Source of the DNA: a virus
IMG/VR virus record: IMGVR_UViG_3300023223_000189
Location: 1-37,868 of that record
Length of the DNA stretch: 37,868 nucleotides
Strand: one strand, 5' to 3'
Shown here: piece by piece, positions 4,991 through 15,472 of the stretch
How the letters are laid out: each line of letters begins with the position of its first letter
How positions within the stretch are numbered: position 1 is the stretch's first letter
Notes under the pieces: model-generated
Databases searched by the model: none
Told to the model about the DNA's origin: nothing
The model's input: only the letters and a program-made list of their open reading frames with translations
Translations under genes and position numbers: made by a program

Positions 4991-5077
4991 GCCTATTCAT
5001 TACCAAACATTAACGGTCATATATCCTGGCAGAGGTTATGATGGAGGCTCATTGATAAGGGAATGGAGAAGAACGAA

Positions 5078-5512
5078 ATGTCAATAAAGTTTGAAGGGCA
5101 TCCAGCGCTTTACAGAACGTCTATGGCTGTTGAGGGCGGGACGGATGTTATTTCTATAATTAGTCACTTGTGGTCTGTAATGACACAAGAGCGAGGATGC
5201 GGATTAGCACATAACCAAGTTGGTGGATCAAAGAGAATCATTGTTATTCATGCCAATGGATTTCGACAAGAATTTATTAATCCTATTATTACTAAGCGGT
5301 ATGGAGGAAAGACCACCAGCAGGGAGGGCTGCCTATCATTTCCCGGTCTTCAGGTTTCTGTTATTCGTGACAAGAAAATAATCGTTGAAGGATTTGATAA
5401 AAATTGGAAGCCGGTTAAATTCAAGCTAAAGGGTCTAGCTTCTTGTTGTGTCCAGCATGAAATTGATCATCTGGACGGGGTAACTATAAGTGACTATAAG
5501 GATAACGAATGA
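5078..5512 (+). CDS. def: Peptide deformylase, minimal phage type (copy 1, 144 aa)
   Basis: All three PDF motifs are present: GCGLAHNQ, EGCLSFPG and QHEIDHLDG. The protein ends ~10 residues after HExxH. GGAG lies 9 nt upstream of ATG 5078. Confidence 0.85.
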   Translation: MSIKFEGHPALYRTSMAVEGGTDVISIISHLWSVMTQERGCGLAHNQVGGSKRIIVIHANGFRQEFINPIITKRYGGKTTSREGCLSFPGLQVSVIRDKKIIVEGFDKNWKPVKFKLKGLASCCVQHEIDHLDGVTISDYKDNE

Positions 5513-5758: not shown

Positions 5759-5893
5759 TCACGAAGCCCCAGCAATACCCCGCATTACCAGATCAACCGC
5801 AATGTCACTATTAGCAGCACCGCTTACACTCCAGCCGGCAACCAGGATGAATAGCCAGAATGACATCCATAGTACTCGTTTTATGTTGATCAT
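5759..5893 (-). CDS. 44-aa single-pass membrane peptide (below ORF-track cutoff)
   Basis: Hand translation MINIKRVLWMSFWLFILVAGWSVSGAANSDIAVDLVMRGIAGAS. ATGA overlap with the upstream gene. It is the last gene of the inverted cassette. Confidence 0.45.
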   Translation of the reverse strand: MINIKRVLWMSFWLFILVAGWSVSGAANSDIAVDLVMRGIAGAS

Positions 5894-6075
5894 GACTTTT
5901 CCTTGATTAAGACCTCAATGATATCGTCTAACTTTTTTCTGATATTTGAATATCCGTCCTTCTGAAGGCCAAGGACAAATGTTGGCGAACATCCTTCTTC
6001 CTTTGCAATTTTGTGAAGATCCGAATTATCAAGGACAAGATCAATAATCTCTCCATAGTATATGTGCTTATTCAT
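5890..6075 (-). CDS. Hypothetical protein
   Basis: 61 aa, start/stop-coupled within the inverted cassette. Confidence 0.55.
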   Translation of the reverse strand: MNKHIYYGEIIDLVLDNSDLHKIAKEEGCSPTFVLGLQKDGYSNIRKKLDDIIEVLIKEKS

Positions 6076-6293
6076 TTCCGTGACTCCAGTTTCTGCCGTA
6101 GCTTGTTAATCGTTTGTGACTGCTTGGCTATCTCATCTTTCTGCTCAAGGATTAGCTCCTGGTCGCGCAGTGCATTGGCCTGGTAGTGCTCGATAGTCTT
6201 CGGCATCGGCTCACCTTTAGCAGGGGTAACCGTATTGCCGTCTCGACAAACCTGGTCATAGCCTGCGTCTGGATCATATCTATCTATACCCAT
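6072..6293 (-). CDS. Hypothetical coiled-coil protein
   Basis: 73 aa, coupled starts and stops. Confidence 0.55.
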   Translation of the reverse strand: MGIDRYDPDAGYDQVCRDGNTVTPAKGEPMPKTIEHYQANALRDQELILEQKDEIAKQSQTINKLRQKLESRK

Positions 6294-6553
6294 TATTTCT
6301 CTTCCTTAGCTGCTGATAGCATGGCTTTGTATATGTCATAGTTCAGTTCTTCTGGCGCGATGCTAAAGCAATCATTAATATGCCTTGCTTCCTGCATCAT
6401 TGCATCTGTAGGATCTTCAGGCACTATTACCTTGCCTTCTAGGTGCTTATTGATTATGGCAATTGCATCCTCTACATCAAGACAAGTTACTCCTTGCCCA
6501 TAATGAAAGTTTGCTGCCTGTACTAGCTCATCAATCATCTCCTGCTTGCTCAT
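6293..6553 (-). CDS. Hypothetical protein
   Basis: 86 aa, coupled starts and stops. Confidence 0.55.
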   Translation of the reverse strand: MSKQEMIDELVQAANFHYGQGVTCLDVEDAIAIINKHLEGKVIVPEDPTDAMMQEARHINDCFSIAPEELNYDIYKAMLSAAKEEK

Positions 6554-6774
6554 ACGTTTTTATCCTTATGGTAAGTAACTGCCCCGACACGCTTCACCAT
6601 TCCCATCATGTTTAGAATCGCCTTAGATGGCGGCTTATGGCCGTTTAGCACCTGACCTATATATTGACGACTAACGCCTAGCACTTTGGCCACTGCGGCG
6701 GCTGGCGACGGATCATCACCATAATAGAATGCGATGTGTACCGCCATTGCCTGTCTGAATTTCTTCTCGTTCAT
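6550..6774 (-). CDS. Cro/YdaS-like HTH regulator
   Basis: VAKVLGVSRQYIGQVLNGHKPPSKAI is an HTH pattern like Cro/YdaS. GGAGG Shine-Dalgarno is present. It is the first gene of the inverted cassette. Confidence 0.7.
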   Translation of the reverse strand: MNEKKFRQAMAVHIAFYYGDDPSPAAAVAKVLGVSRQYIGQVLNGHKPPSKAILNMMGMVKRVGAVTYHKDKNV

Positions 6775-6799: not shown

Positions 6800-6828
6800 A
6801 TAATAAACAATAAGGGGTTGCAGTGCAA
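6800..6828 (-). promoter_or_regulatory. Leftward sigma70-like promoter TTGCAC-17-TATTAT for the inverted cassette
   Basis: On the minus strand, -35 is at 6828-6823 and -10 at 6805-6800. Confidence 0.5.
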
Positions 6829-6846
6829 GCGGTATTGGTTTATATT
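6818..6846 (+). promoter_or_regulatory. Rightward sigma70-like promoter TTGCAG-17-TATATT for def copy 2
   Basis: -35 at 6818-6823, -10 at 6841-6846. The two -35 boxes together form the palindrome TTGCAGTGCAA (6818-6828). Confidence 0.5.
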
Positions 6847-6879
6847 CATTCCATCACTTGCGGTATGGAGCAAAACAGA

Positions 6880-7314
6880 ATGGCATTAAAGTTTGAAGGA
6901 CACCCAGCACTGAGTAACACGTCAACGGCTGTTGATAGAGGCGACGATGTGCTTTCCACAATTAGCCATATGTGGTCTGTAATGACACAGGAACGAGGAT
7001 GTGGATTAGCAAATAACCAAGTGGGCGGATCGAAAAGAATTATTGTTGTTCACGCCAATGGGTTTCGCCAGGAATTCATAAACCCTATTATCACCAAGCG
7101 ATATGGAGGAAAGATCACTAGCAAGGAGGGGTGCCTATCATTTCCCGGCCTTCAAGTTTCCGTTATTCGTGATAGGAAGATAATCGTTGAGGGGTTTGAT
7201 AAAAATTGGAAGCCGGTTAAATTTAAATTAAAAGGTCTAGCTTCTTGTTGTGTCCAGCATGAAACTGATCATTTGGACGGGGTAACTTTAATTGACCATA
7301 AGGATAAATCATGA
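6880..7314 (+). CDS. def: Peptide deformylase, minimal phage type (copy 2, 144 aa)
   Basis: Motifs GCGLANNQ, EGCLSFPG and QHETDHLDG. It has the same length and the same start context (GGAGCAAAACAGA-ATG) as copy 1. Confidence 0.85.
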   Translation: MALKFEGHPALSNTSTAVDRGDDVLSTISHMWSVMTQERGCGLANNQVGGSKRIIVVHANGFRQEFINPIITKRYGGKITSKEGCLSFPGLQVSVIRDRKIIVEGFDKNWKPVKFKLKGLASCCVQHETDHLDGVTLIDHKDKS

Positions 7315-9999: not shown

Positions 10000-10176
10000 T
10001 TGCTGGTACTTTCCAGGCGCGTTGGAGAAGTTTTATATATTGGTGACGATGTGAAGATCACCGTTTTAAGCATAAGCGGCCAGCAGGCCAGGGTTGGAAT
10101 TTCTGCTCCTGATGATGTGCTTATATTGCGTGAAGAAGTAAAATTGCGAAACGAGCGCGAAGAAAATGAACGTTGA
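10000..10176 (+). CDS. csrA: CsrA/RsmA-family RNA-binding translational regulator (58 aa, TTG start, absent from ORF track)
   Basis: Hand translation LLVLSRRVGEVLYIGDDVKITVLSISGQQARVGISAPDDVLILREEVKLRNEREENER aligns position-for-position with E. coli CsrA [54 protein letters not shown] lies at 9987-9992. Confidence 0.8.
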   Translation: MLVLSRRVGEVLYIGDDVKITVLSISGQQARVGISAPDDVLILREEVKLRNEREENER

Positions 10177-12761: not shown

Positions 12762-12771
12762 GGATTTGAGC

Positions 12772-13020
12772 ATGAATGCTCAGGTGATAAGTATCAACAA
12801 CAGAATAGAGCAGCGATCAAACCGGGCCATGGCAAGGCGTCTAAATAATCAGGCTGAGCGTGTTAAGGCTATGAGAGTCAAGCTTGAGGAGGACTCGTTT
12901 GACCTATTCCTGGCCGGAGTTAACCCGCAGGAAGTCATGCGATTCTCTAAGCATCTTCGCGCTGTGTACGGGGATTTAAAAGAAGCGGCAATTGGGGGGA
13001 ATATCGATGTCAATATTTAG
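12772..13020 (+). CDS. Hypothetical protein
   Basis: ATG 12772 lies 7 nt after AAGGA. Confidence 0.5.
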   Translation: MNAQVISINNRIEQRSNRAMARRLNNQAERVKAMRVKLEEDSFDLFLAGVNPQEVMRFSKHLRAVYGDLKEAAIGGNIDVNI

Positions 13021-13387
13021 CAGGGTGGCCGGAGCATTCCTCGGCACAGACAAGGCTGTATCGGGCGTGATGGATATCGCCAAGAAGGGTATGGATATCT
13101 GGGACATGTCCAAGCTGACGCATCAGGAGCGTCTTCAGGCTTTCGTTATCGCCGTCAAGGCAACGGCAAGCAAAGAGACTGCAATCTCCCGCAGGATCAT
13201 CGTGTGGTCTCTGACGGCTATGATCTCATTCTGCTTGGTTGTCGGAACCATCTGGATTGGCCTTGGATCGACCGAGAAGGTGGACCAGCTTGTATTGCTA
13301 GTTGAGGCGCTGAAGATTGGCTGGGGATGGGGTGTTAGCTTGACGTTCTACTTCCTGGCTCATTTGACGATTGGGGGCAAGAAATGA
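13007..13387 (+). CDS. Putative holin (GTA-holin-3TM-like)
   Basis: The N-terminus MSIFSRVAGAFLGTDKAVSGVMDIAKKG... followed by C-terminal transmembrane helices resembles the GTA_holin_3TM family. It heads the lysis cassette. Confidence 0.5.
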   Translation: MSIFSRVAGAFLGTDKAVSGVMDIAKKGMDIWDMSKLTHQERLQAFVIAVKATASKETAISRRIIVWSLTAMISFCLVVGTIWIGLGSTEKVDQLVLLVEALKIGWGWGVSLTFYFLAHLTIGGKK

Positions 13388-13512
13388 ATACTCTATCATG
13401 CGCTATTACATGTGTTATTTTTGGCACCCTGCACGCCATTGACGGGAATCCTCAAGCGTCAACATACGCTGCAGCGTTTCTTATTATTTTAGCGATAAGG
13501 TCAGAGAAATGA
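13384..13512 (+). CDS. 42-aa membrane micro-protein (below ORF-track cutoff)
   Basis: ATGA overlap with the holin. Hand translation MNTLSCAITCVIFGTLHAIDGNPQASTYAAAFLIILAIRSEK. Confidence 0.4.
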   Translation: MNTLSCAITCVIFGTLHAIDGNPQASTYAAAFLIILAIRSEK

Positions 13513-13688
13513 ATCGCAAATGGTGGCCAGACCTGACATTCCTGTATACACCTCTACGAGATACGGCATTTTACATTGTGTTTGGGGTTGTAATTGGCTT
13601 TGGGCTTATCGACTGTAACGAGAAAAGAGGCGATATTGACATGAATACTCACGCTGAACTCACAGAAAATATTAAGGAAGAAAAATGA
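13509..13688 (+). CDS. 59-aa single-pass membrane protein (below ORF-track cutoff)
   Basis: ATGA overlaps on both sides. Hand translation MNRKWWPDLTFLYTPLRDTAFYIVFGVVIGFGLIDCNEKRGDIDMNTHAELTENIKEEK. Confidence 0.4.
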   Translation: MNRKWWPDLTFLYTPLRDTAFYIVFGVVIGFGLIDCNEKRGDIDMNTHAELTENIKEEK

Positions 13689-14128
13689 CGACGATTGCAT
13701 GGGATGGTAAAACACTGGCTGTCGATAGCAGGGCTACATCTGACGGGTACGTAATGACCGACAAGTGTAAAAAGCTGTATACCGGGGTAGGCCAGTATGT
13801 AGCGGCTGCCATGTGCGGTGATGAGGCCGAGGCCGTAGACATGATGGACTGGCTGCGCACTGGCGGGAAAGCCCCCGAGTGCAAGGAGGGTGTGATTATC
13901 GTTGCCGTAATGGAAGACGGTACAGCCCACAAGTTCACCGGGGGCATTGAGACCCCTATCAAGGTCCAGGTGCCCTACGCCGACGGGTCAGGGTGGATCG
14001 TGGCCCTCGCGTCAATGGATGCCGGGCTGAATGCAGTTGAGGCAGTGAAGGCTGCCAGGAAGCGCGACATCTACACTGGCGGCCCAGTAAAGTCGTTTAA
14101 AATAGGGGCTGACGATGAAGGTATCTAA
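13685..14128 (+). CDS. HslV/proteasome-beta-like N-terminal-nucleophile hydrolase (147 aa)
   Basis: MTTIAWDGKTLAVDSRATSDGYVMTDKCKKLY...AAAMCGDEAEA...ADGSGW parallels HslV [38 protein letters not shown]...GFAGGTADA...GSGG. Thr immediately follows the initiator Met. Confidence 0.55.
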   Translation: MTTIAWDGKTLAVDSRATSDGYVMTDKCKKLYTGVGQYVAAAMCGDEAEAVDMMDWLRTGGKAPECKEGVIIVAVMEDGTAHKFTGGIETPIKVQVPYADGSGWIVALASMDAGLNAVEAVKAARKRDIYTGGPVKSFKIGADDEGI

Positions 14129-14468
14129 AGACTTCCATGACTGGGAATTTGAATGCAGCTGCGGATGCGGCAAGAACAACATCGGCGCGGCTGTGGTGTA
14201 TGTCCTTCAGCGCGTCAGGGATTACTATGACAGCCCTGTTACCGTGACATCAGCTGTCAGGTGCCTGGTATACAATCGTAGTGATGACGTTGGCAGTAAT
14301 GACAAGTCACAGCACCCGAGGCGCACAGCTGTTGATTTCACTGTACAGGACGTTGATCCATATGATGTATTTGCGCTGCTTTGCGGATGGTATCCTGACT
14401 CCCTGGGTATCGGTCGATATTGTAACTTTACTCACGTTGATACTCGATTGATTAAGGCAAGGTGGTAA
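14115..14468 (+). CDS. Peptidase M15 (VanY/M15_3-type) endolysin
   Basis: EFECSCG...VTSAVRCLVYN...SQHPRRTAVDFTV...NFTHVD carries the H..D...H zinc-ligand pattern of M15 cell-wall peptidases. Confidence 0.75.
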   Translation: MKVSKDFHDWEFECSCGCGKNNIGAAVVYVLQRVRDYYDSPVTVTSAVRCLVYNRSDDVGSNDKSQHPRRTAVDFTVQDVDPYDVFALLCGWYPDSLGIGRYCNFTHVDTRLIKARW

Positions 14469-14470
14469 CT

Positions 14471-14587
14471 ATGATTATCGACATTTTAATCGGTGTTTTA
14501 GTTATAGCTTTCGGTGCTCACGCAACCTGGTATCGATATCAACAGGAGCTTGAAAAGGATAAAAAAGGGGGCCGTAATAGCCCCTAA
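14471..14587 (+). CDS. 38-aa membrane micro-protein (below ORF-track cutoff)
   Basis: Hand translation MIIDILIGVLVIAFGAHATWYRYQQELEKDKKGGRNSP. It starts 2 nt after the endolysin stop. Confidence 0.4.
   Translation: MIIDILIGVLVIAFGAHATWYRYQQELEKDKKGGRNSP
14561..14584 (-). terminator. Intrinsic terminator at the convergence point of the two arms
   Basis: The minus strand reads GGGGC-TATTACG-GCCCC followed by TTTTTT. On the plus strand the same hairpin is followed by a moderately T-rich tract. Confidence 0.55.
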
Positions 14588-14604
14588 GTTGTACGTTATT
14601 ATTG

Positions 14605-14832
14605 TTATTTCTGGATAGTGTTATTAGATGTTCCACTCTGGTAACGCTTGGCAAAGGCGTCACGTGTAGCAGGATCATTGGCATCGACCAGCGCTTGATA
14701 TTTCTCAGGGTGCAGCCATCTAGTCATGGCAGTCGTGCCGTGTGCGTTCTGACCCTCTGGGACACTCCAGGTAGAGCATCCAGTAGAAAGCGCTGACAGG
14801 GCGATAAGGGCGATAGCGAATAGTGATTTCAT
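14605..14832 (-). CDS. Lipoprotein (signal peptide with lipobox LSTGC)
   Basis: MKSLFAIALIALSALSTGC|STW... AAGGA Shine-Dalgarno lies before ATG 14832. The gene is bracketed by intrinsic terminators. Confidence 0.7.
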   Translation of the reverse strand: MKSLFAIALIALSALSTGCSTWSVPEGQNAHGTTAMTRWLHPEKYQALVDANDPATRDAFAKRYQSGTSNNTIQK

Positions 14833-14904
14833 GGTTAATCCTTGCTTTGGCTTGAGAGACCAAAATAGTAACATTGCATCGTAATTATGAAGGTTAAACT
14901 TCTG

Positions 14905-14992: not shown

Positions 14993-15472
14993 TTACCGTT
15001 GAGCAACAAGCTTATCAAGCAAGTGCGTAATCTTTCCCAATGCCAGCTCTGCAACTGCGAACTTTTTTTTTGCGCCGGCAAGCTCTCTATTGGCCTTCTC
15101 AACCTCGATAGCCTTTTCTCCTGCCGGAATACCCTGTATAGCCATAAGCTGCCACACGATCAGCTGTAGATTGTCTACGCGCCGGCTGATGTAGTCACAC
15201 TCGCGCTGTAATACCTGCCTCTCAGTTTCCGCAACAAACCATTCTTCAGTGTTCTGATGAAGCCTGAATTGCTCAACCTCATTACCGATAAACCACTGCG
15301 GGGCTGTCTTTCCCTTGAATGGTATCTCGACAAACAGAAAGCAATACCACATCGTACCGAATACTACGCACCAGAATGCGTACCGCCTGGCGAATGCGCC
15401 TGGCTCATGCAGGGATGCCCACCACCTAACAATTATCTGCCTGCCGAACATATTGAACAGTGACTTAATCAT
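14993..15472 (-). CDS. Single-pass membrane protein with C-terminal coiled coil (i-spanin-like topology or exclusion protein)
   Basis: Transmembrane segment AFWCVVFGTMWYCFLFV followed by a helical heptad-rich region. AAGGAG Shine-Dalgarno. Confidence 0.55.
   Translation of the reverse strand: MIKSLFNMFGRQIIVRWWASLHEPGAFARRYAFWCVVFGTMWYCFLFVEIPFKGKTAPQWFIGNEVEQFRLHQNTEEWFVAETERQVLQRECDYISRRVDNLQLIVWQLMAIQGIPAGEKAIEVEKANRELAGAKKKFAVAELALGKITHLLDKLVAQR

Follow-up and report, generated by a model that had tools for sequence, protein, structure and literature searches.

What does a gene of the proteasome type do in the middle of a phage lysis operon? The question is raised by IMG/VR virus record IMGVR_UViG_3300023223_000189, whose positions 1 to 37,868 were analyzed here (we call this whole 37,868-nucleotide stretch the window); the contig is phage DNA that encodes terminase, portal, major head and tailspike proteins, and its terminase is nearest to those of Pseudomonas phage AH02 and the P22-like phages. 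An earlier note on this DNA, made from the letters alone, had pointed to an open reading frame (ORF) that lies between small membrane ORFs and an M15 endolysin and had proposed that it encodes a proteasome- or HslV-type N-terminal nucleophile (Ntn) hydrolase. Our analysis shows that this gene is a new and divergent member of a known phage family, PPH, which was described in 2021, and that it does lie inside the lysis cassette, an arrangement also seen in relatives. Our favored overall picture, to which we give a probability of about 0.6, is that the product is an active cytoplasmic Thr1 peptidase whose gene is accessory cargo in a late lysis operon and is dispensable for lysis. The finding by itself reveals no new mechanism; what gives the question weight is in part the very large size of PPH, which at 50% identity forms about 9,400 clusters.

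The PPH gene occupies positions 13685..14128 on the plus strand and encodes a protein of 147 amino acids (aa) with the N-terminus MTTIAWDGK, according to both the ORF list and the raw sequence, and a ribosome-binding site, AAGGAAG, lies 6–7 nt 5' of its start. It is one of a run of overlapping plus-strand ORFs that extends from 13007 to 14587 and encodes, in order, proteins of 126, 42 and 59 aa, PPH, the endolysin and a 41-aa protein. The ATGA-coupled placement that the earlier note had described holds at the upstream junction, where the ATG of PPH overlaps the stop codon of the 59-aa membrane ORF (13509..13688) in this way, and the downstream junction is instead a 14-nt overlap between the 3' end of PPH and the M15 endolysin gene (14115..14468). 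PPH has no hydrophobic segment, and the only domain found in it by Pfam and PHROG is the proteasome-like one. No other stretch of the region is as rich in GC as this gene, which has 56.5% (65% at third codon positions) where the two small ORFs upstream have 41–42% and the window a mean of 46%, a contrast consistent with a recent horizontal acquisition. A near-identity DNA search of positions 12900–14700 against 50,697 phage records gave no match. Two antisense ORFs, 13649..13930 and 13672..13962 (both on the minus strand), were rejected as genes, as their matches elsewhere merely mirror the conserved PPH coding sequence.

The fold proposed in the earlier note was borne out by Pfam, PHROG, the AlphaFold2 model and Foldseek, which all agree. 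The match of PPH to Pfam family PF00227 lies just over the gathering score (23.5 bits where 22.4 are required, E 4.8e-5), and PHROG phrog_1040, "peptidase HslV family", matches residues 1–142 with E 3.9e-31. An AlphaFold2 model made with 56 homologues as input (pLDDT 95.2, pTM 0.89) has the alpha-beta-beta-alpha sandwich of the proteasome beta subunits by its own architecture and by Foldseek. The Foldseek comparison with the PDB gave 392 matches at E ≤1e-3, of which the best are to 20S beta5 subunits (E 8e-9, probability 1.0, TMq 0.67–0.73), and in BFVD the model finds matches in 43 phage-protein clusters. The family profile finds beta5, beta5i and beta8 in the PDB at E ~1e-10 and HslV and BPH (bacterial proteasome homolog) at E ~1e-6, and hhalign pairs PPH with Escherichia coli HslV over its full length (134 columns, probability 92.6%, E 4.5e-7). 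The profile and Foldseek searches recommended in the earlier note have thus returned a proteasome-beta fold with the catalytic residues aligned, and we have very little doubt that the protein belongs to the PPH family of Ntn hydrolases and that its active site is intact.

The alignments with proteasome beta5 and with E. coli HslV both place T2, the residue next to the initiator Met, at Thr1. In addition, D14 (in the segment AVDSRAT) aligns with Asp17, K30 (in KCKKLY) with Lys33, G45 (in MCGDEAEA) with Gly47, G101-S102-G103 with Gly128-Ser129-Gly130, and D128, T131 and G132 with Asp166, Ser169 and Gly170, respectively. Residues T2, D14, G45, G101 and G103 are invariant in the 56 homologues; K30 is present in 51 of them and S102 and D128 in 44 each, and position 131 is T or S in all 56. 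The four parallels with HslV drawn in the earlier note all fall on catalytic elements, except that the equivalent of Asp17 is D14 and not the "DG" at positions 7–8. Our first set of homologues was collected by means of the pattern MTTIA[WY]D and a word index, and the invariance of MTTIA in it is in part a selection artefact. Because of this bias toward the MTTIA start we repeated the check by an HMMER search free of any word index, in which 125 of 132 new representatives begin with Met-Thr; the exceptions look like mis-called starts.

The PPH proteins are about 140 residues long, lack helix H2 and a propeptide, and are found in tailed phages and prophages (Fuchs et al. 2021, PMC8665760). In the model of the window protein DSSP finds a single helix (residues 47–59) between strands 38–44 and 71–75, with H2 absent, and in the hhalign alignment the H2 region of HslV falls opposite a gap in PPH. 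There is no propeptide: for almost every one of the 150 best representatives the alignment starts at residue 1 of both profile and protein. The gene belongs to the PPH family (PHROG 1040) and is not an orthologue of HslV, an assignment made by the published hallmarks and the PHROG 1040 match rather than by comparison with the published representative WP_042125023.1. Among the 1.84 billion representatives searched the family forms 12,444 clusters (50% identity) at E ≤1e-3, and 9,370 at E ≤1e-10. At E <0.01 a match is present in 237 deposited phage genomes, every one of them with less than 38% identity to the window PPH, and among metagenomic proteins the ceiling is 56%. The phage records with an annotation as HslV-family protein or Ntn hydrolase number 237, and the nearest genome-encoded homologues, which are in Serratia prophages, bear the NCBI name "hypothetical protein" throughout. 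In the full-text literature searched we found no experimental study of any PPH, but only the 2021 bioinformatic description and passing mentions in genome annotations. A subgroup of the nearest homologues, P0003, P0004, P0005 and P0009 (171–173 aa, 40–48% identity in the alignment), have an extra basic C-terminal tail of about 25 residues (..LRPPKVGSVSRAAAKKAVKSITKP) that the window PPH lacks; this could be an interaction or nucleic-acid-binding tail.

Sister cassettes and other PPH loci

The head of the window's lysis cassette encodes a 126-aa membrane protein (13007..13387, plus strand), a candidate holin by its position, in which a soluble N-terminal portion of about 65 aa is followed by hydrophobic, transmembrane-like segments (we take its start as the ATG at 13007, in agreement with all of its homologues; the ORF list starts at the TTG at 12992). 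Its family has 12 members, all of 122–126 aa, and we read the genomic contexts of five: the window and the loci L012, L096, L097 and L098. Across these the 126-aa protein is 76–80% identical, and in all five its gene is followed by that of a single-pass membrane protein of about 50–59 aa, with an endolysin gene downstream; four of these five small proteins share a conserved acidic tail (..ELTE..). In the window the small protein has 59 aa (13509..13688, plus strand), one transmembrane segment and the conserved acidic tail at its C-terminus (..HAELTENIKEEK). It has homologues in the same slot of L096, L097 and L098 and is possibly a holin or antiholin partner. The window endolysin (14115..14468, plus strand) is a 117-aa Peptidase_M15_3 protein (PF08291, E 2.1e-18; PHROG 894 endolysin, E 1.5e-28) with no signal peptide. 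Because this constant pair stands before interchangeable endolysins, we read the membrane proteins as the holin-type members of a lysis cassette.

PPH is encoded in three of these five loci, each time between the small membrane gene and the endolysin. The three are the window, with its M15_3 endolysin, L012, whose PPH is 56% identical to that of the window and whose endolysin is Amidase_2-like (judged by eye from a truncated N-terminus), and L098, whose PPH is 38% identical and whose endolysin is of the Amidase_2 type. The other two, L096 (endolysin Amidase_2) and L097 (Peptidase_M23), have the cassette without PPH, the endolysin gene coming straight after that of the small membrane protein. 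A core component should be present wherever the cassette is, and PPH is not; nor does it have the membrane segment, lipobox or muralytic domain of a core lysis protein. Since its slot is occupied in three of five otherwise shared cassettes, PPH is a facultative insert in a fixed slot, and this pattern of presence and absence argues that it is cargo rather than lysis machinery. The existence of sister cassettes that do without it, together with the variation of endolysin type among those that contain it, also speaks against the dedicated processing of holin, endolysin or spanin components that had been suggested for it. In the window and its four sisters a small lysis operon stays otherwise constant while PPH comes and goes, and this natural contrast offers a clean genetic system in which to ask about the action of a viral proteasome homologue. 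As regards the cassettes themselves, the occurrence of the 126-aa family before M15_3, Amidase_2 and M23 enzymes shows clearly that endolysins are swapped as modules while the holin-like gene ahead of them stays constant. A WDGH-domain protein (PF25311) is encoded directly 3' of the endolysin in L097 (4933..5325) and L098 (3597..3971) and is absent from the window.

Lysis genes are also found beside PPH in other lineages. In the Xanthomonas Pradovirus phages (e.g., Pagan) the order is signal-arrest-release (SAR) endolysin, i-spanin, o-spanin and PPH, with PPH overlapping the o-spanin stop codon; in L014 it is lysozyme, an 83-aa gene and PPH; in L015 M15_3 endolysin, PPH and a PagL-like gene; and in L003 lysozyme, an outer membrane protein (OMP) barrel gene, a 78-aa gene and PPH. 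The earlier note had called the lysis cassette an unusual place for a protease-like gene; the site is real, but it is less unusual than was thought, as several unrelated lineages place PPH in or beside the lysis cassette. Other locations are varied: among the nearest homologues PPH directly follows the nin-region nuclease gene NinG or YbcO in L004, L013, L001, L002 and the Pseudomonas phages AH02 and Cruim01, and it lies between HNH genes in Xp10, in the tail module in Klebsiella Jedunavirus, near the head genes in Vibrio K44, beside the terminase in phiM5, and as gene 1 in jumbo Erwinia phages.

To put numbers on this, 62 non-redundant PPH loci (clusters at 70% identity) were surveyed with Pfam for ORFs of 90–450 aa within 2.5 kb of PPH, which gave 9 Phage_lysozyme, 7 Rz, 4 holin, 1 M15_3, about 11 small-terminase, 2 NinG and 2 YbcO matches. 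A lysis gene lies within 2.5 kb in at least 14–15 of the 62 loci (~23%), a figure that includes L012 and L001, added to the result of the ORF caller. Random placement in a genome of ~40 kb would give, by a rough estimate, ~15%. With ~23% observed against ~15% expected the enrichment is weak (at most ~1.5-fold), and it is confounded by the nin–lysis–terminase architecture that these genomes share, whose junctions are classic sites for accessory genes. Two related phages have cargo typical of lysogenic conversion next to PPH and the endolysin, namely the PagL-like lipid A deacylase gene of L015 (5455..5931) and the OMP beta-barrel gene of L003 (5193..5687). The flank of the lysis cassette shows itself to be a hotspot for accessory genes.

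Proposed function and its alternatives

Five things were observed directly: the fold, the active-site residues, the family, the gene order, and presence or absence in relatives. From these we would picture the enzyme as follows. PPH would be made without a propeptide, and the ordinary route of deformylase and methionine aminopeptidase would remove its fMet and so expose Thr1; removal of the Met is a chemical requirement for an Ntn hydrolase. The Thr1 hydroxyl would be the nucleophile and the free Thr1 amine the base, D14 and K30 would assist catalysis, G45 would supply the oxyanion hole, and S102, D128 and T131 would keep the shape of the site. Because PPH has neither a signal peptide nor a membrane segment, it presumably acts in the cytoplasm, where it would cleave peptide bonds, probably as a ring-shaped homo-oligomer and without a phage-encoded unfoldase. 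The gene would be an accessory, horizontally mobile piece of cargo that has been inserted into the late lysis operon and coupled with it translationally. Because of this insertion site the product would be made late, alongside the lysis proteins, and it would not be a required part of lysis.

Several considerations weigh against this reading. What we say of peptidase activity, oligomeric state and substrates is extrapolation from HslV and the 20S proteasome, and the loss of H2 could change or abolish ring assembly. The late expression is read from gene order only, and a promoter and terminator scan did no better than chance, with counts equal to those of shuffled sequence. Moreover, PPH recurs beside lysis genes in unrelated lineages (Pradovirus, L014, L015 and L003), and three sister phages have kept it in the same slot despite divergence of PPH to 38–56% identity; recurrence and slot retention could mean that the position is a functional one and not a neutral site for cargo.

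These last points belong to the first alternative, in which PPH is a lysis-linked protease and an optional fourth component of the cassette that tunes the timing or efficiency of lysis. Its targets would be the N-terminal domain of about 65 aa of the 126-aa protein or the acidic tail of the 59-aa protein, or else a host envelope-maintenance factor or murein precursor. The translational coupling of PPH between membrane proteins and endolysin fits such a role, as do its retention in L012 and L098 despite the divergence of PPH and the exchange of endolysin type, its position right beside the lysis genes in the independent lineages of Pradovirus Pagan, L014, L015 and L003, and the excess of loci with a lysis gene within 2.5 kb (at least 14–15 of 62, against ~15% expected). 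On the other hand, L096 and L097 have the same cassette, with a 126-aa protein 76–78% identical, and do without PPH, and for about three-quarters of the PPH loci no lysis gene was seen within 2.5 kb. The surroundings of lysis cassettes are in any case classic insertion sites for accessory genes (the PagL-like gene of L015 and the OMP-barrel gene of L003 are examples), and the enrichment is both small and confounded by genome architecture, as noted above. We consider a lysis-linked protease unlikely, and somewhat more unlikely the specific proposal that in this lineage, and independently in Pradovirus and others, PPH is a genuine optional fourth lysis module, a cytoplasmic threonine protease produced along with the holin-like proteins, that sets the lysis clock or strengthens lysis by cutting either of the two membrane-protein targets just named or by removing a host factor or murein precursor that holds lysis back. 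If true, the lysis-module reading would for the first time give a function to a viral proteasome homologue, and lysis would have a regulator of a new kind.

A second alternative, which we also think unlikely, is that PPH is directed at the host, docking on host HslU or another AAA+ unfoldase and redirecting ATP-dependent degradation to host or defence proteins. The full-length homology to HslV (the hhalign probability of 92.6% given above) is in keeping with this. The phage encodes no unfoldase, so degradation of folded proteins would need a host partner, and PPH is very widespread in phages of Proteobacteria, hosts that generally possess HslUV. However, in the HslVU and 20S structures helix H2 sits on the face that meets the regulator ring, and this is the helix that PPH is missing. 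Similarly, Lys28 of HslV anchors the C-terminal tail of HslU, and its position is T25 in the window PPH and Ser in the family consensus. PADLOC gave no match for PPH or its neighbors, and they have no known anti-defence annotation.

Rather less probable is an enzyme that is not a protease at all but a connectase-like transpeptidase or ligase, or an amidase that acts on a small non-protein substrate, by the same Thr1 chemistry. PPH is the most reduced member of a superfamily that includes connectase, a ligase (PMC8665760), which gives the idea some appeal. The connectase signature is a helical S3/S4 insertion, which covers its active site and adds to its substrate specificity (PMC8665760). PPH is without this insertion, and it has kept the full set of proteasome-type residues, including the equivalents of Ser129, Asp166 and Ser169.

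Finally, the earlier note had proposed a functional link between PPH and phage peptide deformylases. The window does have two peptide deformylase genes, as the note had said: 5063..5512 and 6823..7314, both on the plus strand, both over the TIGR00079 equivalog cutoff, and about 84% identical over 147 aa. They lie in the early region, 6–8 kb from PPH. Between the two copies lies a block of four genes on the minus strand (5890..6774), an arrangement suggestive of a duplication with an inverted insert, and the nearest phage relatives of the deformylases are in Vibrio phages VP16T and VP16C (45–49% identity). Deformylases occur mainly in cyanophages, in VP16-like and ~60-kb Vibrio phages and in some jumbo phages. 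PPH is found for the most part in phages of Salmonella, Pseudomonas, Xanthomonas, Erwinia, Escherichia and Klebsiella, genera that are essentially absent from the deformylase matches. Between the 237 PPH-positive and the 166 deformylase-positive phage records the listed overlap consists only of jumbo Caulobacter and Brevundimonas phages (~280 kb or more), e.g., CcrColossus, and no deformylase motif was found in 98 loci (724 kb), nearly all of them PPH-bearing. E. coli HslV, which also starts with Met-Thr-Thr, is matured by the deformylase and methionine aminopeptidase of the host, and host deformylase is essential. It is tempting to think that exposing Thr1 of PPH, or of other proteins of the phage, is what the phage deformylases are for, as both gene types are in this genome and Ntn hydrolases need to lose their Met, but the distribution of the two genes among phages, their distance apart here and the maturation of HslV by the host enzyme leave the link unsupported and make it very improbable.

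Neighboring genes

Directly 5' of the cassette is the gene for an 84-aa soluble protein (12766..13020, plus strand), which is found in the same position in L012 and L098 (41–43% identity by blastp). Between the 126-aa and 59-aa genes lies an ATGA-coupled ORF of 42 aa (13384..13512, plus strand) that is hydrophobic by its hydropathy profile; it has no homologue in the relatives examined and is unique to the window among them. The last ORF of the operon (14462..14587, plus strand) would encode 41 aa with an N-terminal transmembrane segment and a charged tail, and gave weak PHROG hints. Its status as a gene is uncertain, one reason for doubt being that a GC-rich hairpin at 14568..14584 (GGGGCCGTAATAGCCCC) overlaps its last codons. 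This hairpin, which has T-runs on the minus strand and stands at the meeting point of convergent operons, is likely a terminator, to judge from its sequence and location.

The tail operon, on the minus strand, closes with two genes that converge on the lysis operon. One encodes a 159-aa protein (14993..15472, minus strand) with, by hydropathy, an N-terminal transmembrane segment and a C-terminal coiled-coil-like region, and is matched at the corresponding place in L098 by a homologue with 73% identity; the other encodes a small lipoprotein (14605..14835, minus strand) with the lipobox LSTG|C. They could be a separated i-spanin/o-spanin pair: tentatively, the 159-aa protein may be an i-spanin convergent to the cassette, and the lipoprotein an o-spanin or a superinfection-exclusion factor. 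Neither has a family match, and tblastn of the 126-aa and 159-aa proteins against phages gave none. Pfam and PHROG returned nothing usable for the small membrane ORFs and left the 126-aa protein unmatched. As these databases match none of the proteins concerned, the holin and spanin roles rest on position.

Farther away, an ORF of 58 aa at 10000..10176 on the plus strand (MLVLSRRVGEVLYIGDDVKITVL...) is 60% identical to an ORF of L004 with a Pfam CsrA match (PF02599), and a similar gene is present in L003. It looks like a phage CsrA-like RNA-binding regulator in an early or middle operon.

PPH beside known proteasome-type enzymes

Connectase belongs to the same superfamily as PPH and is set apart from it by the S3/S4 insertion and by working as a ligase. 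The 20S beta subunits (beta5 and beta5i, and archaeal beta) are the best structural and profile matches to PPH and share with it the equivalents of Thr1, Asp17, Lys33, Gly47, Ser129, Asp166 and Ser169, but the identity is only about 20%, and PPH is without their propeptide, helix H2, C-terminal H5 and alpha-subunit partner.

HslV (ClpQ) resembles PPH in its Met-Thr-Thr-Ile start, in the lack of a propeptide, and in fold and catalytic residues, with homology over the full length. HslV has about 175 aa and helices H1–H4, whereas the window PPH is about 30 residues shorter and without H2. None of the NCBIfam HslV models matches PPH (the only match is arc_protsome_B, whose 32.6 bits fall far short of the cutoff of 224), and a Walker-A scan of the window in six frames for an HslU-like or AAA+ partner found two unrelated ORFs only. 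The name HslV, which the earlier note had used, is therefore too strict if taken to the letter, given the shorter length, the absent H2, the failure of the NCBIfam models and the lack of HslU in the window.

BPH (PDB 5OVS) is of the same superfamily, and its chain 5ovs_A is matched by the profile at E 1.5e-6. It is larger than PPH (about 200 aa) and differs in having H2 and a long acidic pore loop. As a stand-alone ring peptidase with no known unfoldase, BPH is a plausible functional analogy for PPH. The closest likeness is with the PPH family as described in 2021, with which the window protein has in common the length of about 140 aa, the absence of a propeptide and of H2, the Thr directly after Met, the equivalents of Thr1, Asp17, Lys33 and Gly47, and its encoding by tailed phages and prophages. 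What the window copy adds to that description is its position between holin-like genes and an endolysin, a context absent from the 2021 paper.

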